DNA of 12,007 nt, from the IMG/VR virus record IMGVR_UViG_2698536414_000003. One strand, given 5' to 3'. Below, one piece after another: positions 121-11,583 of the stretch (the stretch's first letter is position 1; the number at the start of each line of letters is the position of its first letter). The notes beneath the pieces were generated by a model, which did no database searches, was not told the DNA's origin, and saw only the letters and a list, made by a program, of their open reading frames with translations. The DNA is from a virus. Its lineage: Duplodnaviria; Heunggongvirae; Uroviricota; Caudoviricetes. The position numbers and the translations under genes were made by a program.

Positions 121-411
121 TTAGTGATTCAGGCCGTTACCGCGTCCGTCGAGAAAAACTTCCACGAGCAAATCACGGGTATAAGTGCGCTCGATGCCGC
201 GATGCAGATAAAGCCGTCCGCGTAAATTAGCTGATGCAGTCCAGGTACCATCTTTGTGTTTGACCAGCATTCCTGGCATGACCGCACCTCGATTAACGGT
301 CTGCGTTCCATAATGTTGATGAACCATAAAAACTCCTGCCCGTAAGCTGGGCTGCTGAACATATAGAGACTTCTGCGCGTATTCAGGCGGTGGATGGCCG
401 CCGGTTGTCAT
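121..411 (-). CDS. Hypothetical 96-aa protein, first gene downstream of the predicted PL (the position N occupies in lambda)
   Basis: Longest minus-strand ORF between PL and the next gene, about 190 nt downstream of the predicted PL start. It is basic and Gly/His/Arg-rich but has no recognisable N-type arginine-rich motif. An overlapping alternative frame exists at 129-362. Confidence 0.4.
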
Positions 412-599
412 AACTAAGCCGCCTCGTTGAAGCGACTAAGGTATGAAATGTTGAGTTAATTTCAGCTGGTCACACCGACGTTCACGCGTCCGTTTCACCC
501 CTCGCACTCCCCGAAGCCTGCTGAAATTCAAACTGCGGATCTAAGCGGTCATCGCAACGGTGAATCAGGTAGTTGCCGTATCGTTGTGTTGTTGCGATG

Positions 600-640
600 A
601 ACTTATTTAAAACTATAGTTGTTTTATCGTCAACAACAAA
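600..640 (-). promoter_or_regulatory. PL-like leftward promoter with overlapping operator (OL)
   Basis: On the minus strand: TTGACG (plus 628-633), a 17-nt spacer, then TTAAAT (plus 605-610). The spacer ATAAAACAACTATAGTT closely matches the PR spacer AAAAACAACCATAGTTT. Further GTTGTTTT/CAACAAC motifs lie at 616-660. Confidence 0.55.
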
Positions 641-773
641 AGTTGTTTTATTGGTTGTTTTAGATATAACTGGTTGTATTTAGGATGGATTTATTTTGTG
701 ACTTGCATCGCACAGCGATAACTGAAGCGAGGTCGTGGTGGTTTTTTGAACGGTTTGTGTGATGAGGGGAGGC

Positions 774-801
774 AAAAGAAAACCCGGCACGACGGCCGGG
801 G
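774..801 (-). terminator. Intrinsic terminator closing the repressor-cargo operon
   Basis: Minus-strand hairpin CCCGGCCGTCGTGCCGGG (plus 783-800) followed by TTTTCTTTT, immediately after the stop of the 805-1668 gene. Confidence 0.6.
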
Positions 802-804
802 AAA

Positions 805-1668
805 TCATTTCGCATCTACAATAAATAACCTGTTTATCTGGCCTTTTTTAACAGTAGCCTTTGCGGTTATAGTGAATACTGCAGATGGATCACCTTTGGT
901 TGATATATATGCACTAAGAGCTCTAATATACGGGTTATTCTTCTTTCCTGCAGCTGGATCGCTAATTTCAGCAGTGATTCTCTTTTTTGAGTCATCACCA
1001 TCTAAAATTATTTTAGCTGTCATATTTTGTGCATCAAATTCTGTAAGAAAAGCACGATACTCACGAAGACCGAGAACTTCATCATCATCAAGCCTATCAA
1101 TTTCAGCTTTATCTCTCTCGTTAACTTTTAGAAGGCAGCCGTCAACATTTGTTGCAACACTTATCTGATCGCAAGTATTACCAATAGGTGATACTGCCTG
1201 CCTTACAGAGGGGCGAAGCTCTACAGCCATTCGGTCAATCAAAGAGATCAACTTATCAATGGTTCCAGCATCCTTGTTTCCTAGTGCCTCTATGGCCTTT
1301 TCAAGTGACTGCTGCAAAGCTTTCATTTCATCTTTCTTGTTAGAATTTCTCGCAAAAATATATTGTAGTATTGCGCCAAGTATAGTTGCGGCGATCCCCG
1401 AGAACAACTGGTTCTGAGTGGCGAAGTTAAGAACTGCTTCAAGAGTAAAGCAGTTAGCTTTTGCTTCGCGTGCGTAAACCTTAACTTCCTGATAATTAAT
1501 GTATTTACTATATTTTTGTGTAACAGAGAAAGAAGCTGCTGTTGAGAGAACTTTAGAAAAACCCTTTAGGGATTCTCCTAGGCAGTTCAAATCTATTTCA
1601 TGATTTAAAGCATCTTTTCCGTCATACCTAAGAGAGATTTTTATATCCTGTAAAGCGTCACAATCCAT
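805..1668 (-). CDS. 287-aa hypothetical protein with one central transmembrane helix; immunity-region cargo at the rexAB-equivalent position; candidate exclusion/abortive-infection gene
   Basis: Clean ORF with a GAGAG Shine-Dalgarno 66 nt downstream of the repressor stop. The DNA is visibly more AT-rich than its flanks. Hydrophobic segment [18 protein letters not shown] at about residues 88-105 (plus 1354-1407). I recognise no family. Confidence 0.7.
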
Positions 1669-1734
1669 AAATCGCTCTCGTCTAATTCTAATTAAATTTA
1701 CTATCCCCTAAACGACTCATCAGCACAGTACTGA

Positions 1735-2424
1735 TTATCCATGTTTCCTGTACGTCTGGGGCATGCTCCCAATAACCTTACCGAAGATGAACACCCGGTT
1801 CATCTCGTCTTTCTCGATCGGGTCCCACGGTGAGTAGCTCTTGTTATCAGAGATAACCAGCAGCTTATCCTTCATCATTTGCAGGCGCTTTACATGGGCT
1901 GTGTCGTCGTACAGAAACGCATAGATACCATCACCGTCGAAAGATTTAACCGTGATATCAACGAACAGCAGATCACCTGGTTCGATCGTTCCTGACATGC
2001 TGTCACCACGCACGTTAATGATGCGGATATTTTCCGCCTTCCTACCATCGAACATGTGACGAGCATCGTCAAACGAGTACTCAACCGAGCGTAGAACTTC
2101 TACAAACTCACGGTTGATGACTCCCGGCCCAGCACTGACTTCTATATCAAGAACGTCAATCTTGAAGTATTTGGAATGGCTGACAGTTGATTGTATTGGT
2201 TGCACTGTACTGTCTGACATATTTCCAACGCCAGAAGATAACCATTCTGCGCGCACACCCAAAGCGTTCGCGATCTCCACGATTTTAGTTGTTTGATTAG
2301 CTTTCCCTGTTTCGATTTTCTGAATAGCAGCCTGGCTAACCCCGACCAAATCCCCAAGCGCCTTTTGTGTAAGGCCTCGCGCTAATCTGGCTTCTTTAAG
2401 TCTTTCTGAGAGTGTTGTTTTCAT
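1735..2424 (-). CDS. cI: CI-type repressor (N-terminal XRE helix-turn-helix, C-terminal S24 LexA-like autopeptidase)
   Basis: HTH segment LTQKALGDLVGVSQAAIQKIETGK; Ala-Gly cleavage site in VSAGPG; GDSM serine motif and HVKRL lysine. Start taken at the ATG at 2424 (MKTTLSERLKEA), which looks leaderless as in lambda PRM; the longer ORF to 2490 would run through the operator. Confidence 0.85.
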   Translation of the reverse strand: MKTTLSERLKEARLARGLTQKALGDLVGVSQAAIQKIETGKANQTTKIVEIANALGVRAEWLSSGVGNMSDSTVQPIQSTVSHSKYFKIDVLDIEVSAGPGVINREFVEVLRSVEYSFDDARHMFDGRKAENIRIINVRGDSMSGTIEPGDLLFVDITVKSFDGDGIYAFLYDDTAHVKRLQMMKDKLLVISDNKSYSPWDPIEKDEMNRVFIFGKVIGSMPQTYRKHG

Positions 2425-2510
2425 AGTCCAAATGTACAACCAAGGTTTTATTCCATCAAACGAAAATGGTTGTTGACTAAAAACAACCATAGTTTTAATC
2501 TTGATTCAAA
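2425..2510. promoter_or_regulatory. OR region with divergent PRM (leftward) and PR (rightward) and three operator-like sites
   Basis: PR: TTGACT 2473-2478, 17-nt spacer, TAATCT 2496-2501. PRM on the minus strand: TTGATG (plus 2455-2460) and TACATT (plus 2431-2436) six nt before the cI ATG. Inverted repeat ATGGTTGTT (2466-2474) / AACAACCAT (2482-2490), plus ACAACCAAGGTTTT at 2435-2448. Confidence 0.6.
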
Positions 2511-2528: not shown

Positions 2529-2759
2529 ATGAACCCAGCTATCAAAACAGCGATCAATATCGTTGGTTCACAAAAGAAACTGGGCGCTGCTTGCGAAGTT
2601 TCACAGCAGGCCGTCTATAAGTGGCTTCACAACAAAGCAAAGGTATCCCCTGAACATGTCGGCAGCATTGTTACGGCTACTGGTGGAGTAGTGAAGGCAT
2701 ACCAGATTCGCCCGGATCTTCCGAAGTTGTTTCCACACACCGAAAAGAACGCAGCTTAA
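2529..2759 (+). CDS. cro: Cro/YdaS-family HTH regulator (Cro analog)
   Basis: 76 aa, GGAGG Shine-Dalgarno at 2519-2523, divergent from the repressor. HTH-like segment KKLGAACEVSQQAVYKW and an RPDL motif as I recall for YdaS-type Cro proteins. Confidence 0.8.
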   Translation: MNPAIKTAINIVGSQKKLGAACEVSQQAVYKWLHNKAKVSPEHVGSIVTATGGVVKAYQIRPDLPKLFPHTEKNAA

Positions 2760-2828: not shown

Positions 2829-3368
2829 ATGCAACCACTTACATACCAACAGACTAGCGGATTTAGCCCGACTGCGGTGATAAATCGTTCTCAAACAAAA
2901 CAGGTGCCAGGCCACGAAAAAATCCGTGATGCCGTCCGCGCCTGGTCGGCTGTAGATAATCAGGATGTCGTTGCCACACTCATTGTGAATGAGTATCGGG
3001 AGCAGGGCGGCGGCACCATCGATTTCCCTGATGATGTCAGCCGTGCACGCCAGAAGCTGTTCCGCTTCCTCGATAACAAATTCGATTCTGAAAAATACCG
3101 AAATAACGTGCGTGAACTGACCCCGGCAATTCTGGCGGTACTACCGCTGGAATATCGCGGTTACCTGGTTGAGCAGGATAGCTTCATGGCTAGGTTGGCT
3201 GAAATGGAAAAGGAACTCAGTGAGGCAAAACAGGCTGTCATTCTCAACGCACCACGCCACCAGAAACTGAAGGAAATTAGTGAAGGTATTGTGTCGATGT
3301 TTCGTGTGGACCCAGATCTGGCTGGTCCATTGATGGCGATGGTTACTACCATGCTGGGGGCGATATGA
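2829..3368 (+). CDS. YdaT-like protein at the cII position
   Basis: 179 aa with AAGGAG Shine-Dalgarno. Motifs EYREQGGG and LTPAILAVLP resemble what I recall of Rac YdaT, which follows YdaS. Family call is from memory. Confidence 0.5.
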   Translation: MQPLTYQQTSGFSPTAVINRSQTKQVPGHEKIRDAVRAWSAVDNQDVVATLIVNEYREQGGGTIDFPDDVSRARQKLFRFLDNKFDSEKYRNNVRELTPAILAVLPLEYRGYLVEQDSFMARLAEMEKELSEAKQAVILNAPRHQKLKEISEGIVSMFRVDPDLAGPLMAMVTTMLGAI

Positions 3369-3454
3369 CAGGTTCAGAAATGGCGAAAGCCGGTCTGCTG
3401 GAACAGAACCGACTTTCAGGTGCAAATCGTAACACACTCATTGCGGGAGGAATT

Positions 3455-4384
3455 ATGGCAAACACTGCTGAGATATTCAATTTTCCAGTGCCGGATGCGG
3501 CACAAAAGGAGCCGCGCGTGGCAGATCTCGATGATGGTTATACGCGCATTGCAAATGAGTTGCTGGAAGCTGTGATGCTGGCCGGATTAACACAGCACCA
3601 GCTTCTGGTCTTCCTAGCTGTCATGCGCAAAACATATGGCTTTAATAAAAAACTGGATTGGGTGAGCAACGAGCAACTGTCCGAATTGACCGGGATATTG
3701 CCGCACAAGTGTTCTGCTGCAAAAAGTGTTCTGGTAAAGCGTGGGATTCTTATTCAGAGCGGGCGGAATACCGGCATTAATAATGTGGTCAGTGAATGGT
3801 CAACATTACCCGAATCAGGTAAGAAAAATAAAGTTTACCTGAAAGAGGTAAATTTACCTGAATCAGGTAAAAAAAGTTTACCCAAATCAGGTAAAGACGT
3901 TTACCCGAATCAGGTAAACACAAAAGACAAACTAACAAAAGACAATATAAAACCTTTTTCGTCCGAGAATTCTGGCGAATCCTCTGACCAGCCAGAAAAC
4001 GACCTTCCTGTGGAGAAACCAGATGCTGCAATTCAGAGCGGCAGCAGGTGGGGGACAGCAGAAGACCTGACCGCCGCAGAGTGGATGTTTGACATGGTGA
4101 AGACCATCGCGCCATCAGCCAGAAAACCGAATTTTGCAGGGTGGGCTAACGATATCCGCCTGATGCGTGAACGTGACGGACGTAACCACCGCGACATGTG
4201 CGTGCTGTTCCGCTGGGCATGCCAGGACAACTTCTGGTCCGGTAACGTGCTAAGTCCGGCCAAACTCCGCGACAAGTGGACCCAACTCGAAATCAACCGT
4301 AACAAGCAACAGGCAGGCGTGACAGCTAGCAAACCAAAACTCGACCTGACAAACACAGACTGGATTTACGGGGTGGATCTATGA
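3455..4384 (+). CDS. O: Replication initiator O (lambda O-like, iteron-binding)
   Basis: GGGAGG Shine-Dalgarno then ATG at 3455; starts MANTAEIFNF...VADLDDGYTRIANELLEA, like lambda O (MTNTAKILNF...VADLDDGYARL). Ori iterons lie inside the gene; stop overlaps the P start (ATGA). Confidence 0.85.
   Translation: MANTAEIFNFPVPDAAQKEPRVADLDDGYTRIANELLEAVMLAGLTQHQLLVFLAVMRKTYGFNKKLDWVSNEQLSELTGILPHKCSAAKSVLVKRGILIQSGRNTGINNVVSEWSTLPESGKKNKVYLKEVNLPESGKKSLPKSGKDVYPNQVNTKDKLTKDNIKPFSSENSGESSDQPENDLPVEKPDAAIQSGSRWGTAEDLTAAEWMFDMVKTIAPSARKPNFAGWANDIRLMRERDGRNHRDMCVLFRWACQDNFWSGNVLSPAKLRDKWTQLEINRNKQQAGVTASKPKLDLTNTDWIYGVDL
3806..3958. repeat. Replication origin: five iterons plus an AT-rich tract inside O
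   Basis: TTACC(C/T)(G/A)AA(T/A)(C/G)AGGTAA copies at 3806-3822, 3835-3851, 3854-3870, 3878-3894 and 3901-3917, each with inverted ends, followed by an AT-rich stretch at 3918-3958. Confidence 0.8.
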
Positions 4385-5082
4385 AAAACATCGCCGCACA
4401 GATGATTAACTTTGACCGTGAGCAGATGCGTCGGATCGCCAACAACATGCCGGAACAGTATGACGAAAAGCCGCAGGTACAGCAGGTAGCGCAGATCATC
4501 AATGGTGTGTTCAGCCAGTTACTGGCAACTTTCCCGGCGAGCCTGGCTAACCGGGACCAGAACGAACTGAACGAAATCCGCCGCCAGTGGGTTCTGGCTT
4601 TCCGGGAAAACGGGATCACCACAATGGAACAGGTTAACGCAGGAATGCGCGTAGCCCGTCGGCAGAATCGACCATTCCTGCCATCACCCGGGCAGTTTGT
4701 TGCCTGGTGCCGGGAAGAAGCATCCGTTACCGCCGGGCTGCCAAACGCCAGCGAGCTGGTTGATATGGTTTACGAGTATTGCCGGAAACGTGGCCTGTAT
4801 CCGGATGCAGAGTCTTATCCGTGGAAATCAAACGCGCACTACTGGCTGGTTACCAACCTGTATCAGAACATGCGGGCCAATGCGCTGACTGATGCGGAAT
4901 TACGGCGCAAGGCTGCCGATGAACTGGCCTGTATGACAGCGCGAATTAACCGTGGTGAGGCGATACCTGAACCAGTAAAACAACTTCCTGTCATGGGCGG
5001 TAGACCTCTAAATCGTGCACAGGCTCTGGCGAAGATCGCAGAAATCAAAGCTAAGTTTGGGCTGAAAGGAGCAAGTGTATGA
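4381..5082 (+). CDS. P: Replication protein P (helicase loader), near-identical to lambda P
   Basis: 233 aa beginning MKNIAAQMINFDREQMRRIANNMPEQYDEKPQVQQVAQIINGVFSQLLATFPASLANRDQNE, matching lambda P as I recall it. Confidence 0.9.
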   Translation: MKNIAAQMINFDREQMRRIANNMPEQYDEKPQVQQVAQIINGVFSQLLATFPASLANRDQNELNEIRRQWVLAFRENGITTMEQVNAGMRVARRQNRPFLPSPGQFVAWCREEASVTAGLPNASELVDMVYEYCRKRGLYPDAESYPWKSNAHYWLVTNLYQNMRANALTDAELRRKAADELACMTARINRGEAIPEPVKQLPVMGGRPLNRAQALAKIAEIKAKFGLKGASV

Positions 5083-5372
5083 CGGGCAAAGAGGCAATTA
5101 TTTATTACCTGGGGACGCATAAGAGCTTCTGTGCGCAGGACGTTGCCGCGGTAACAGGCGCAACAGTAACCAGCATAAATCAGGCTGCGGCTAAAATGGC
5201 GCGGGCAGGAATCTTGGTCATTGATGGTAAGGTCTGGCGAACGGTGTATTACAGATTCGCTACCAGGGAAGAACGGGAAGGAAAGGTGAGCACTAACCTG
5301 ATTTTTAAGGAGTGTCGCCAGAGTGCCGCGATGAAGCGGGTGTTGATGGTTTGGGGGAGGGTAGGGGTATGA
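5079..5372 (+). CDS. ren: Ren protein
   Basis: 97 aa MTGKEAIIYYLGTHKSFCAQDVAAVTGATVTSINQAAAKMARAGILVIDGKVWRTVYYRFATREEREGK, matching lambda Ren; ATGA overlap with P. Confidence 0.85.
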   Translation: MTGKEAIIYYLGTHKSFCAQDVAAVTGATVTSINQAAAKMARAGILVIDGKVWRTVYYRFATREEREGKVSTNLIFKECRQSAAMKRVLMVWGRVGV

Positions 5373-7305: not shown

Positions 7306-7815
7306 ATGTCTGGTTGGGATAACGGTATAGATGCAGTTTCTGCGATTGCAGCTATCGCATCTGCGGTAGCAACTTATTTAGCATGGCGATCCTCAGAAGC
7401 TAGCAGGGCCACATCCGAAAAAGCTTTGCAGTTGCAAGGAAAGCAGTATTTGTACGAGACATTAAAAGCTTGCGCTGAGAGAGCGAATTCATACTCAAAA
7501 GGAAAGAAAGGGGCTGACTGGAGCTTTCATGACGCAGCCAATATTGTTCGATGTTTGAACATGGCAATGGGGAGCATAATAAATTACTCAGATACCAACA
7601 ATCAGGATGCAATGAAAGGTCTGAAGCAATTCTTTATTAGCCAATTAAACATGGAGCTTTTTGAAGAGCTCAACTATGAGGTTGGGCCTGATGCCTTCTT
7701 TCACGGAGAGGAGCTAACCAGCATGACGAGCGATATTTACTCGCAGTGGTTAAACATTATTTCATTCTTTAACCTCATGATTGTCACAGATGATGACCTC
7801 GCCGATGAAACATAG
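7306..7815 (+). CDS. 169-aa hypothetical membrane protein (N-terminal transmembrane helix), low-GC cargo
   Basis: GAGGG Shine-Dalgarno. N-terminal hydrophobic helix IDAVSAIAAIASAVATYLAW. More AT-rich than neighbours and followed by a 187-bp non-coding gap. Confidence 0.65.
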   Translation: MSGWDNGIDAVSAIAAIASAVATYLAWRSSEASRATSEKALQLQGKQYLYETLKACAERANSYSKGKKGADWSFHDAANIVRCLNMAMGSIINYSDTNNQDAMKGLKQFFISQLNMELFEELNYEVGPDAFFHGEELTSMTSDIYSQWLNIISFFNLMIVTDDDLADET

Positions 7816-9407: not shown

Positions 9408-9492
9408 AGTCAGAGATAACAATCAACTAATACTGTTTTGTTGATTTTTGCTTGTAATTGGCGTTTTGGTCTGATTTTTGTGGAGTAAGTTG

Positions 9493-9927
9493 ATGCGTGA
9501 TATTCAGATGGTTCTTGAGCGTTGGGGGGCGTGGGCGGCTAATAATCATGAAGATGTGACCTGGTCGTCCATTGCCGCCGGATTTAAGGGACTGATCCCC
9601 GAAAAAGTAAAATCACGTCCACAGTGCTGTGACGATGATGCGATGGTGATATGCGGGTGCATAGCCCGCCTTTACCGGAACAATCGCGATCTGCATGACT
9701 TGCTGGTTGATTATTACGTGTTGGGGGAGACGTTCATGGCGTTGGCACGGAAACATGGGTGCTCTGACACCTGTATAGGTAAACGCCTTCACAAAGCGGA
9801 GGGGATTGTTGAAGGCATGCTGATGATGCTGGGAGTGAGGCTTGAGATGGATCGGTATGTTGAGCGTGAATTGCCGGGAGGGAGAACCTCTGTATTTTAT
9901 CAGCGAAAAAATAGTTTACGATCGTAA
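9493..9927 (+). CDS. Q: Late-gene antiterminator Q (phage 82 / 933W-type)
   Basis: GGAG Shine-Dalgarno then ATG at 9493 ([19 protein letters not shown]), Cys-rich zinc-binding-like segment, followed by terminators and the tRNA cluster. Confidence 0.8.
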
Positions 9928-10368: not shown

Positions 10369-10444
10369 GGCCCTTTAGCTCAGTGGTGAGAGCGAGCGAC
10401 TCATAATCGCCAGGTCGCTGGTTCAAATCCAGCAAGGGCCACCA
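10369..10444 (+). tRNA. ileZ: tRNA-Ile (anticodon CAT, ileX-like)
   Basis: Cloverleaf folded by hand: 7-bp acceptor GGCCCTT / AAGGGCC, D-stem GCTC/GAGC, anticodon loop CTCATAA (CAT at 10402-10404), T-loop TTCAAAT, CCA encoded. Near-identical to E. coli ileX as I recall it; the CAT anticodon alone cannot exclude Met. Confidence 0.85.
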
Positions 10445-10451
10445 TCACATA

Positions 10452-10528
10452 CCGCCATTAGCTCATCGGGATAGAGCGTCAGCCTTCGAAGCTGGCTGTG
10501 CGGGGTTCAAGTCCCCGATGGCGGTCCA
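10452..10528 (+). tRNA. argN: tRNA-Arg (anticodon TCG)
   Basis: Acceptor CCGCCAT / ATGGCGG, anticodon loop CTTCGAA (TCG at 10486-10488), T-arm CGGGG TTCAAGT CCCCG, CCA encoded. Confidence 0.8.
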
Positions 10529-10541
10529 TTATCAGCATCAT

Positions 10542-10618
10542 GCGTTGTTAGCTCAGTCGGACAGAGCAATTGCCTTCTAAGCAATCGGTCACTGGTTCGA
10601 ATCCAGTACAACGCGCCA
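10542..10618 (+). tRNA. argO: tRNA-Arg (anticodon TCT)
   Basis: Acceptor GCGTTGT / ACAACGC, anticodon loop CTTCTAA (TCT at 10576-10578), T-loop TTCGAAT, CCA encoded. Confidence 0.85.
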
Positions 10619-10702: not shown

Positions 10703-11218
10703 GTGAGCTTACGGAGTGGTCAGTGTGACTTTCTCTGTGGGCAGATCGCTCCCGGGCGTTGGCTCACCCACCCAAAGGAACGTCACGATGTTTGTATTTT
10801 TGGTAAAAAAGCCCGCCGAGCGGCAGTGGAAATTAAAAAGTTTGAGAAACGTGATCTGGCACAGGCGGTTATTAATGCTGCCTATCTGGTGGCCTATGCA
10901 GATGGTGAATGTGAGGCTTCAGAGAAAGTGAAGATCGAGCAGGTCTTGCGTAACCAGCCTGCGTTGTCCGCGTTTACGTCAGAAATTAATGCGATTAGCG
11001 CAACCATTATCGGTCAGCTGGATACGAACTTTAAAACTGGTCGTCGAGCGGCATTGCGTGAAATTGAAGATGTGAAACACGATACGCGTGAAGCGGAAGA
11101 TGTGCTGGATGTGGCGGTGGCCATTGCGGAGGCAGACGGCGAAATTGAGCCGGAAGAGCGCAAGGTGCTGGAAGAGATTGCCGGTGTTCTGGGTCTTCGT
11201 CTGGAGAATCACCTGTGA
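10703..11218 (+). CDS. TerB-like domain protein; start uncertain (possible -1 frameshift from the ATG at 10788, or a GTG start near 10826)
   Basis: Two ADG-containing motifs typical of TerB-like domains (LVAYADGECEASEKVKIEQVL and VAIAEADGEIEPEERKVLEEIAGVLGL). The frame has no internal ATG; the only ATG with a good Shine-Dalgarno (AAGGAA, ATG 10788) is in another frame. Confidence 0.55.
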   Translation: MSLRSGQCDFLCGQIAPGRWLTHPKERHDVCIFGKKARRAAVEIKKFEKRDLAQAVINAAYLVAYADGECEASEKVKIEQVLRNQPALSAFTSEINAISATIIGQLDTNFKTGRRAALREIEDVKHDTREAEDVLDVAVAIAEADGEIEPEERKVLEEIAGVLGLRLENHL

Positions 11219-11382: not shown

Positions 11383-11583
11383 TTTTTTTATTTGCTGTTT
11401 ATTAAAAACACTTCTGCATGGTGAATCCCCCTGTGCGGAGGGGCGATCAGCAACCAGGTATATGGGATAATCGCGGATTCAGGTGCTGATACTGAATTCA
11501 CCGGGAGGCACCCGGCACCATGCTTTGCCACAAAAGTGTTGTTTCTGTTTTTCTCAAACTATCATCGTTATCCCTTTATTTCC

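Follow-up and report, generated by a model that had tools for sequence, protein, structure and literature searches.

In phage lambda, the slot between the repressor gene cI and OL/PL is occupied by rexA-rexB. In Rex, a sensor acts through a membrane effector, a logic like that proposed below for the protein described here. The same order of cI, cargo and OL/PL is found in the window, the whole stretch of 12,007 nucleotides that was analysed from the IMG/VR virus record IMGVR_UViG_2698536414_000003, where the cargo is a gene encoding a 287-aa protein. The sequence-only reading had placed this gene in the equivalent of the rexAB slot, and comparison with the lambda layout bears this out. As in lambda, the cargo is dispensable for the phage and is presumably part of the cI transcript in the lysogen, but lambda Rex is made up of two genes whereas a single ORF lies here between cI and the terminator, and RexB is polytopic whereas the 287-aa protein has one hydrophobic helix. 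Alignment of the family profile using hhalign gave probabilities of 0.2% for RexA and 0.1% for RexB, and no Rex family was matched in Pfam at E ≤ 1, in agreement with the earlier view that the protein is unlike either. The same can be said of its supposed unlikeness to SieB, as the Pfam scan at E ≤ 1 gave no SieB-type match, and PADLOC gives just PDC-S42.

A homologue is carried by phage phi80. Gene 40 of this phage (40A/40B; PHI80_46, AFV29182.1) encodes a protein of 288 aa with the same two Pfam domains, and 40A is 62% identical to the 287-aa protein over residues 1-285 (E 2e-114, with 99% of the length aligned). Its position is also alike, as it follows cI in the same orientation and precedes OL/PL (in the phi80 record L001, cI is located at 3154-3864, 40A at 4001-4867 and OL at 5163-5248). 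The phages differ in their repressors, that of phi80 being 25% identical to the cI of the window, and in phi80 PL is followed by an N gene, unlike in the phage studied here. The gene had initially been called undescribed, but this cannot be upheld, as gene 40 was already entered in X13065, in which it is split in two. The acetate kinase superfamily label given in the phi80 record was rejected, Pfam being without any such match, and Tai was rejected as an identity for gene 40, as Tai in phi80 is orf63/64. On phi80 lysogens T4 does not plate and the yield of P1 is reduced 10-fold, and lambda lysogens show neither effect (PMC2885432). The determinant of these T4 and P1 phenotypes is unmapped, and other defence genes exist in phi80, for example Tai orf63.

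Single-gene systems of comparable design or position have also been described. AbiP of Lactococcus and PdpSau of a S. aureus prophage are Abi proteins with a single transmembrane (TM) helix and an OB-fold, and PdpSau, which is prophage-encoded, protects the lysogen (PMC10127798, PMC13064643). Like the 287-aa protein, both are one polypeptide with one hydrophobic helix and an OB-fold-like domain, a likeness of architecture, although the TM helix is N-terminal in AbiP and PdpSau and the hydrophobic helix is central here, where it follows an 87-residue alpha/beta domain and precedes a helical bundle. BstA of Salmonella phage BTP1 is encoded by a single repressor-adjacent gene and protects the lysogen (PMC8585504). 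BstA and the 287-aa protein are alike in being encoded by one gene beside a prophage repressor. BstA contains a DNA-binding domain of the KilA-N type and is not known to have a TM helix, and neither a KilA-N match (Pfam) nor a BstA-type match (PADLOC) was found in the 287-aa protein.

Immunity-region layout and boundaries of the cargo

The ORF encoding the 287-aa protein is real and extends over 805..1668 on the minus strand (ORF list). As first read from the letters alone, it has the repressor on one side and OL/PL on the other. The repressor gene (1735..2424, minus strand) is of the cI type, with HTH_3 and Peptidase_S24 domains in Pfam, and its product is WP_000858975.1 in the RefSeq annotation; the mechanical ORF of this gene runs up to 2490. 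The OL operator repeats at 607..651 match 2455-2498 in inverted orientation, over 19 nt at 95% and over 29 nt at 72%, and also form direct repeats of 17 nt with a spacing of 24 nt; PL is located within this region, leading leftward into kil. The OR operator repeats at 2455..2498, with a palindrome at 2466-2490, lie in the PRM/PR region between cI and a divergent cro-like gene with a YdaS-type HTH (2529..2759, plus strand; Pfam YdaS_toxin, E 4e-17). The leftward operon begins with kil, which encodes a cell-division inhibitor (121..411, minus strand; PHROG 294 Kil, E 1e-38) and of which RefSeq gives a shorter 207-nt version. The genes kil-gam-bet-exo are found further left of OL, and no N-like ORF is present between OL and kil in the window. 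A published paper on the regulatory region of Stx phages concerns the other side of cI.

The ORF and cI are co-directional and are separated by a spacer of 66 nt (1669..1734, minus strand), in which the terminator scan detected no terminator-like site. The spacer contains a GAGAG Shine-Dalgarno-like motif 7-11 nt 5' of the ATG and, by eye only, a weak promoter-like TTTAGG-16-TAGAAT. No RNA family was detected in 400-2900 using Rfam. On the far side of the ORF, the terminator scan identified an intrinsic terminator at 783..800 on the minus strand, which read from 800 to 783 is a G+C-rich hairpin plus T-run (hairpin CCCGGCCGTCGTGCCGGG then TTTTCTTTTG).

Phage PhiR34_1 has the same repressor, OL and terminator without the cargo, as can be seen when the two sequences are aligned. 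Homology ends just past the terminator stem (~802) and is back at the cI stop codon (~1739), and about 125 nt of unrelated sequence are present at the cargo site of PhiR34_1 instead. The cargo is a discrete insertion from the cI stop codon to the operon terminator, and the cassette, ~803..1738 on the minus strand, comprises the ORF and its spacer. As the terminator at 783-800 is also carried by the cargo-less PhiR34_1, it is the resident terminator of the operon and does not belong to the cargo; together with the homology break at ~802, this contradicts the suggestion that the gene has its own terminator. With regard to signals of its own, the terminator is thus common to the empty site, and no promoter was called on the minus strand of the spacer by the promoter scan. 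The gene appears to make use of the signals of the cI operon. Since the cargo is situated between the cI stop and the operon terminator, its co-transcription with cI is likely. This had been proposed from the outset, and it stands as far as the shared strand, the short spacer and the lack of a terminator between the genes are concerned; the transcript itself we infer from this layout.

Family membership and predicted fold

The protein had been thought to resemble no family. It does however match Pfam DUF7946 with 187.2 bits (E 4e-55) and DUF7947 with 67.1 bits (E 1e-18), both above the gathering threshold of 27 bits that applies to each, and PHROG 5147 covers its full length (positions 1-287 of 287, E 1.5e-178). 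The Pfam scan at E ≤ 1 returned just these two domains and one spurious match of 17 residues. The family is already known in the sense that it is catalogued, although no function entry for DUF7946, DUF7947, PHROG 5147 or phi80 gene 40 was found in the databases searched, nor any experimental work on a DUF7946/DUF7947 member in the literature. It comprises 497 clusters (50% identity, E ≤ 1e-3), nearly all of 270-300 aa and with both domains; among 104 diverse relatives, DUF7946 was detected in every one and DUF7947 in 102. Judged by these sequences, the family is real and uniform. Apart from E. coli, it is found in Klebsiella, Enterobacter, Serratia, Morganella, Mannheimia, Neisseria and others. 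Of the complete E. coli genomes, ~1.4% carry the gene. Among 77 E. coli genomes that have it at ≥99% identity, the ORF is unsplit by IS elements in 75 and interrupted by IS1 in two. An antisense ORF at 746-1168 (plus strand) was taken as spurious because a conserved protein-coding gene encloses it.

Neither the 287-aa protein nor any of the 104 diverse relatives matched a validated defence model of PADLOC. PDC-S42 (302 positions) is an unvalidated single-gene candidate of similar length, and residues 9-127 of the 287-aa protein match its positions 4-113 (E 1.5e-4), which is the N-terminal third only; this weak similarity takes in ~115 residues with the alpha/beta domain and the hydrophobic helix, and the C-terminal part differs. 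The same model matches 24 of the 104 diverse relatives through their N-terminal part, with a best E of 3e-8, and the N-terminal module may at most be distantly related to that of PDC-S42. The NCBIfam model LAPAL_fam ('putative phage structural protein') gave an N-terminal match below the cut-off, which was too weak for use. A sequence search of solved structures returned nothing below E 0.01, and a search of the predicted viral structures in BFVD was uninformative, the three proteins matched being uncharacterised phage proteins. No catalytic motif could be recognised in the protein.

The AF2 model of the 287-aa protein (pLDDT 92.6, pTM 0.80) comprises an N-terminal alpha/beta domain, a hydrophobic TM-grade helix within a helical bundle, and a C-terminal OB-fold. 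The N-terminal domain (residues 9-81; 1426..1644, minus strand) contains a conserved RYDGxDAxxH motif, and the OB-fold-like barrel (residues 197-287; 808..1080, minus strand) corresponds to DUF7947. The helix of residues 88-106 (1351..1407, minus strand) is the sole hydrophobic segment of the protein, with a 19-residue Kyte-Doolittle mean of 1.85, an Eisenberg <H> of 0.72 and a muH of 0.19, and is directly followed by a conserved K/R cluster, here R107, K111 and K112. Its position is kept across 105 diverse relatives, for which the median Kyte-Doolittle value is 1.56 and the value is ≥1.2 in 90%. Of the single central TM helix that was claimed from the sequence, one conserved hydrophobic helix can therefore be retained, which may or may not span the membrane. 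Judging by the pTM of 0.80, the two terminal domains are packed as one compact unit, which is hard to square with a permanent membrane-spanning helix separating them. By the positive-inside rule, moreover, the charged 87-residue N-terminal domain would end up in the periplasm although it has no signal peptide, which weighs against the reading proposed below.

The ORF has a GC content of 38.4% and a GC3 of 29.5%, compared to 47% and 51% for cI, and the window as a whole has 49.1% GC. The gene is therefore more AT-rich than its flanks, as had been noticed, but the recent acquisition that was deduced from this does not follow: the family gene is AT-richer than its own locus in 9 of the 11 hosts examined, so GC alone is no sign of recent acquisition.

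The slot as a cargo hotspot

Both flanks of the slot are joined in 1023 E. coli genomes, and the states of the slot were read from sampled rows of these. Most of the sampled rows show the empty state, with a span of 1013 bp, and at least six types of cargo were seen, several of them behind the identical repressor WP_000858975.1. In addition to the DUF7946/DUF7947 gene, these are a pair encoding 147 and 87 aa and a BamE-like lipoprotein (an envelope-type protein), both without a PADLOC match; DUF6932 with a protein of 310 aa (PADLOC candidate PDC-M63); HipA_2 with DUF3037 (PADLOC candidate PDC-M66); and a 357-aa protein with an ASCH-domain protein (PADLOC candidate PDC-M11). The matches to PDC-M63, PDC-M66 and PDC-M11 range in E from 1e-15 to 1e-133. 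The slot from the cI stop to the terminator is a cargo hotspot. The sequence-only reading had pointed to what other prophages carry between cI and PL, and the survey shows this to be either nothing or varied cargos, of which three match PADLOC candidates. In its presence/absence polymorphism with conserved flanks and its deviating composition, the gene has the marks of a moron.

Identical DUF7946 proteins were found behind dissimilar repressors, which share 19-44% identity in Klebsiella, 28% in Morganella and 23% in Mannheimia, and the arrangement of repressor and DUF7946 gene recurs in phi80, Vitreoscilla, Neisseria and Erwinia. By these comparisons, the gene is tied to the slot independently of the immunity type. 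In Serratia, a DUF7946 gene is located in an AlpA island that also contains AbiD (E 5e-55), and in Vitreoscilla a SIR2 protein (PDC-S25 match, E 2e-142) is encoded directly 3' of the DUF7946 gene. The context scan of genome contigs covered 8 loci, and its statistics are therefore anecdotal and not quantitative. The association argument leans largely on other 'PDC' candidates that are themselves unvalidated. At least one strain has a degraded form of the host prophage, with an integrase truncated by IS100.

Proposed role and alternatives

As the slot in the repressor operon is either empty or, elsewhere, holds candidate anti-phage genes, the 287-aa protein is probably a phage-exclusion protein, and on balance its context favours an anti-phage function expressed in the lysogen, whether by exclusion or by abortive infection. 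The gene would be a mobile single-gene cargo ('moron') of the repressor operon, transcribed with cI from the maintenance promoter, and the protein would be made continuously in the lysogen, which it would shield from other phages as rexAB does at the same site in lambda. One way in which this could occur is that the C-terminal OB-fold binds nucleic acid or protein produced by the infecting phage, that this binding shifts the state of the helical bundle holding helix 88-106, and that the helix then becomes anchored in, or inserted into, the inner membrane, whereby the infection would be aborted. This specific combination of sensor and membrane effector is itself doubtful.

P22 SieA, HK97 gp15 and P1 Sim block the entry of incoming phage DNA without killing the cell, and the 287-aa protein could similarly act in superinfection exclusion at the envelope, as an inner-membrane anchor that prevents DNA entry. 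The single TM-grade helix conserved across the family, a placement suited to expression in the lysogen, the presence of a BamE-like lipoprotein as an alternative cargo of the slot and the complete failure of T4 to plate on phi80 lysogens are all consistent with this. However, two thirds of the protein (the helical bundle and OB-fold) would be cytoplasmic by the positive-inside rule, the compact model with its pTM of 0.80 is at odds with domains on opposite sides of a membrane, and the genes that the family adjoins, AbiD and those of SIR2 type, are intracellular defences, and we consider such a role unlikely. It could also be that there is no membrane role, and that the helix forms the buried core of the bundle or an oligomer interface in a soluble factor that binds nucleic acid or protein. 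With an <H> of 0.72 and a muH of 0.19, the helix is not one that two helices could shield in a monomer, and a conserved K/R cluster after such a helix is typical of a membrane anchor, which leaves a soluble factor improbable.

The protein may on the other hand serve no defence at all, and be an accessory to lysogenic conversion or prophage housekeeping, acting alongside the repressor on induction, membrane physiology or host fitness. This would fit with the lack of a function in any database and with the two slot cargos, the 147 + 87 aa pair and the BamE-like protein, that PADLOC does not match, and the tight linkage of the gene to many repressor types could mean a role in lysogeny. Yet the related phages PhiR34_1 and Turner, which have the same repressor, are viable without the gene, so it is not needed for the control of lysogeny; it is also found away from repressors, in islands with AbiD, and the breakage of 2 of the 77 E. 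coli copies by IS1 indicates that it is dispensable. The likelihood of a non-defence role is accordingly judged to be small. The same IS1 insertions, and the degraded host prophage with its IS100-truncated integrase, might even be taken to indicate that the ORF arose by chance or is a decaying, functionless remnant, but this is refuted by conservation, there being 497 clusters of full-length two-domain relatives with conserved motifs. The 75 of 77 E. coli copies (≥99% identity) that are unsplit by IS and the confident fold prediction also speak against it, making it extremely improbable.

If the anti-phage function is extended to its full scope, DUF7946/DUF7947 would be a new single-protein Abi or exclusion family with a fold that has no solved counterpart, carried in the repressor operons of many proteobacterial prophages; it would be responsible for the T4 exclusion and P1 interference of phi80 lysogens, and would use the OB-fold as a sensor to release a latent helix into the membrane. 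Taken as a whole, this is a tentative proposal. Were the gene shown to be a defence gene, it would account for an unmapped observation from 2010, the exclusion of T4 and depression of P1 by phi80/Lula lysogens. It would also add a compact single-gene system of 287 aa to the defence catalogue and provide a function for two Pfam DUFs and one PHROG. Whatever the role of the gene, a precise cargo slot is defined, extending from the cI stop codon to the operon terminator. As this slot holds many cargos behind one repressor, it is handy for mining defence genes that are expressed in lysogens, and its variants behind one repressor constitute a natural isogenic series.

Organisation of the immunity region and limits of the cargo

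The window belongs to a lambdoid prophage of E. coli whose immunity region is Rac-like. The cI-type repressor gene (1735-2424, minus strand; HTH_3 and Peptidase_S24 by Pfam; RefSeq WP_000858975.1) is divergent from a YdaS-type cro (2529-2759), which is followed by a YdaT-type gene in the cII position and by O and P, giving the YdaS/YdaT layout of Rac. OL (607-651) and OR (2455-2498, in the gap separating cI from cro) consist of repeats that match one another in inverted orientation (19 nt at 95% and 29 nt at 72%). The kil gene (121-411; PHROG 294) lies to the left of OL, as does gam-bet-exo in genomes matching the window. Lambda and phi80 have an N-like ORF between OL/PL and kil, whereas no N-like antiterminator ORF is present there in the window (411-600). 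Several E. coli strains carry positions 600-2500 on the chromosome with 100% identity; in TW10828, one of these, the prophage adjoins tRNA-Arg and a truncated integrase.

Directly downstream of cI and on the same strand is the 287-codon ORF (805-1668, minus strand), with 38.4% GC and 29.5% GC3, compared to 47% and 51% for cI and 49.1% GC for the whole window. The sequence-only reading had described the position, AT-richness, hydrophobic segment and hairpin of this ORF correctly. It had also taken the hairpin and T-run, located by the terminator scan at 800..783 (minus strand), to be the cargo's own terminator, but the same one is found in PhiR34_1, which lacks the ORF. PhiR34_1 and the window have OL, cI and the terminator in common (the hairpin with two or three substitutions); homology ends just past the terminator stem (~802) and restarts at the cI stop codon (~1739), and the gap is filled by ~125 nt unrelated to the window. 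Based on these breaks, the cargo is the stretch ~803-1738, which was inserted after the cI stop codon and ahead of the resident cI-operon terminator.

The 66 nt spacer between cI and the ORF includes a GAGAG Shine-Dalgarno-like motif. As both genes are on one strand, the scan found no terminator-like site between them, and the insertion is upstream of the operon terminator, cI transcripts should read through the ORF; this geometry is strong evidence, and expression with cI is likely. Inspection by eye alone showed a weak promoter-like sequence, TTTAGG-16-TAGAAT, within the spacer; it is under the scan threshold.

Further features were observed elsewhere in the window. An ORF of 169 aa in the nin region (7306-7815, plus strand) is more AT-rich than the neighbouring genes (43% GC), has a hydrophobic segment at its N terminus and may be a second accessory cargo; the matching region of TW10828 has an AAA ATPase and a hypothetical gene instead. 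A cluster of three tRNA genes, Met(cat), Arg(tcg) and Arg(tct), is located at 10369-10618 downstream of a Q-like antiterminator gene (9478-9927), an arrangement found in many lambdoid and Stx-type phages. Just past it is a 171-aa ORF (10703-11218, plus strand), at a place equivalent to that of the toxin genes in Stx phages. The late region has an Rfam match to the sRNA STnc100 (11390-11559, plus strand; 104 bits against a gathering score of 47).

A catalogued protein family and its predicted fold

The encoded protein had been thought to resemble no recognised family; it does, however, score far over the gathering cut-offs of two Pfam families, DUF7946 (residues 11-191, E 4e-55) and DUF7947 (residues 201-287, E 1e-18), and matches PHROG 5147 end to end. 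In RefSeq the E. coli protein now carries the name 'DUF7946 domain-containing protein'. Gene 40A of phi80 (4001-4867 of the compared locus, JX871397) is 62% identical to it across 99% of its length by tblastn, and is located after cI on cI's strand and before the annotated OL/PL operators; by alignment and gene order, phi80 gene 40 is thus a homologue in the equivalent position. The gene is already listed in the 1988-era phi80 record X13065, where it appears as two pieces, 40A of 209 aa and 40B of 95 aa; a sequencing frameshift is the presumed cause. The 'acetate kinase superfamily domain' label given to gp40A in the phi80 record was not retained, as the family has no match of this kind in Pfam.

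An exhaustive profile search recovered 497 clusters (50% identity, E<=1e-3), nearly all of 270-300 aa. Among diverse members DUF7946 was present in 104/104 and DUF7947 in 102/104, with no additional domains. The single-gene PADLOC candidate PDC-S42 matched 24 of these 104 weakly (best E 3e-8), via the N-terminal ~115 residues.

AlphaFold2 on a deep family alignment gave a confident model (pLDDT 92.6, pTM 0.80), with an alpha/beta domain carrying a conserved RYDGxDAxxH motif (residues 9-81), a hydrophobic helix (87-108), two amphipathic helices (112-128 and 134-150; muH about 0.5), a beta-hairpin (168-182) and a barrel of order b-b-b-a-b-b (202-286). There is a single strongly hydrophobic segment (residues 88-106; Kyte-Doolittle 19-residue mean 1.85, Eisenberg <H> 0.72, muH 0.19), and the position of the helix is kept across 105 members (median of the maximum Kyte-Doolittle value 1.56, and >=1.2 in 90%), with a K/R cluster following it. 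Hydrophobicity and flanking charges would favour a membrane-spanning helix, but in the predicted compact model the two flanking domains are in contact, and a helix spanning the membrane permanently would not allow this. One speculative way to reconcile both is a helix that is peripheral, oligomeric, or latent until a trigger releases it.

Polymorphism of the slot and mobility of the gene

A chimeric query of both flanks of the slot was searched against 5426 complete E. coli genomes. It matched in 2210, and the flanks were joined in one place in 1023; in further genomes they were too distant to join. The joined flanks spanned 1013 bp, the empty state, in most sampled rows, and 1505-1508, 1769 or 1825 bp in others, the last being the slot holding the DUF7946 ORF. 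Behind the identical repressor WP_000858975.1 the slot is either empty or holds one of four cargos: the DUF7946 ORF, a pair of 147 and 87 aa, a BamE-like lipoprotein, or DUF6932 with a 310-aa protein. The slot (803-1738; compared loci L026-L029 and L032-L034) is therefore polymorphic, in several cases behind this identical repressor, and is most commonly empty, with ~124 nt in place of a cargo. Sister phages carry two-gene cargos there with PADLOC matches (E values 1e-15 to 1e-133): HipA_2 kinase and DUF3037 in PhiR5_1 (PDC-M66), a 357-aa protein and an ASCH-domain protein in IdasGreatGrand (PDC-M11), and DUF6932 with the 310-aa protein in PhiR30_1 (PDC-M63). As these models are unvalidated candidates, the matches would link the slot to defence by association and are not proof.

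In Klebsiella the same 288-aa DUF7946 protein is found behind repressors only 19-44% identical to one another, with differing cro, replication and recombination modules; DUF7946 proteins are 100% identical in Morganella and 99% in Mannheimia with repressors at 28% and 23%, respectively. Conversely, a repressor 80% identical to that of the window has a DUF7946 partner at 61%. The DUF7946 gene is thus a mobile module preferring the repressor-downstream slot. AT-richness had been read as a sign of recent acquisition, but the family is AT-richer than its locus in 9/11 hosts examined, and this composition is a mark of cargo that moves horizontally and does not date any recent event.

The repressor-then-DUF7946 order also occurs in phi80, Vitreoscilla, Neisseria, Erwinia and an Enterobacter MAG. 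In Erwinia sp. CGal63 a Tlde1-domain ORF (E 1e-29) and a 71-aa hydrophobic ORF, which look like a toxin/immunity pair, lie between the two genes (L004 5188-5933), and in Vitreoscilla the next gene downstream encodes a SIR2 protein (PDC-S25, E 2e-142). Elsewhere the gene is in small islands: together with AlpA and AbiD (E 5e-55) in Serratia, adjoining an IS and integrase on a metagenome contig, and near DinI-like genes and IS3 in Rahnella. From N-terminal sequence, by eye, HigB/HigA-like pairs were seen just downstream in Neisseria (L007 4019-4705) and Mannheimia (L010 7002-7593), and a HigA-like ORF downstream in a Burkholderiaceae MAG (L011 8039-8344). A prophage assigned to the epsilonproteobacterium Helicobacter pametensis (BK070131, L002 4995-5822) has a 50%-identical homologue that is not beside the repressor-like gene of that locus.

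The window allele, at >=99% identity, is carried by 77/5426 complete E. coli genomes, always single-copy and chromosomal. IS1 splits the ORF in two of the 77 (NZ_CP128594.1 and NZ_CP080146.1), so it is dispensable and may be costly.

Candidate role in phage exclusion

On balance, the ORF is probably a lysogen-expressed cargo gene in a defence-type hotspot that excludes or aborts other phages. It occupies the same genomic place as lambda rexAB, but the protein does not belong with RexA or RexB (hhalign 0.2% and 0.1%, respectively) and is not SieB-like, as the sequence-only reading had held for RexA, RexB and SieB; it matches none of the validated PADLOC systems. Phi80 lysogens, unlike lambda lysogens, do not plate T4 and cut P1 yield 10-fold, and the responsible gene is unmapped (PMC2885432); phi80 also carries Tai, orf63/64 (PMC11364771).

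This functional statement is better supported than any mechanistic one. The architecture resembles that of AbiP and PdpSau, Abi proteins that combine an OB-fold with a membrane anchor (PMC13064643, PMC10127798), though in general design only, and we therefore propose tentatively that the OB-fold could sense phage nucleic acid or protein, with the hydrophobic-helix module as a membrane effector. Among the rival readings, superinfection exclusion at the envelope and a non-defence accessory role are regarded as unlikely, each to the same degree, and a soluble binder, in which the helix is buried, is slightly less probable still. A non-functional ORF is refuted by conservation, leaving it a negligible chance.

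Accessory exclusion genes in the prophage repressor operon are a known kind, and this family is catalogued and has been in the phi80 record for decades; an exclusion role of any member is a candidate one. As a candidate the ORF is well defined and easy to test; its hotspot has clean boundaries, and it is linked to a phenotype that has been published but not explained.
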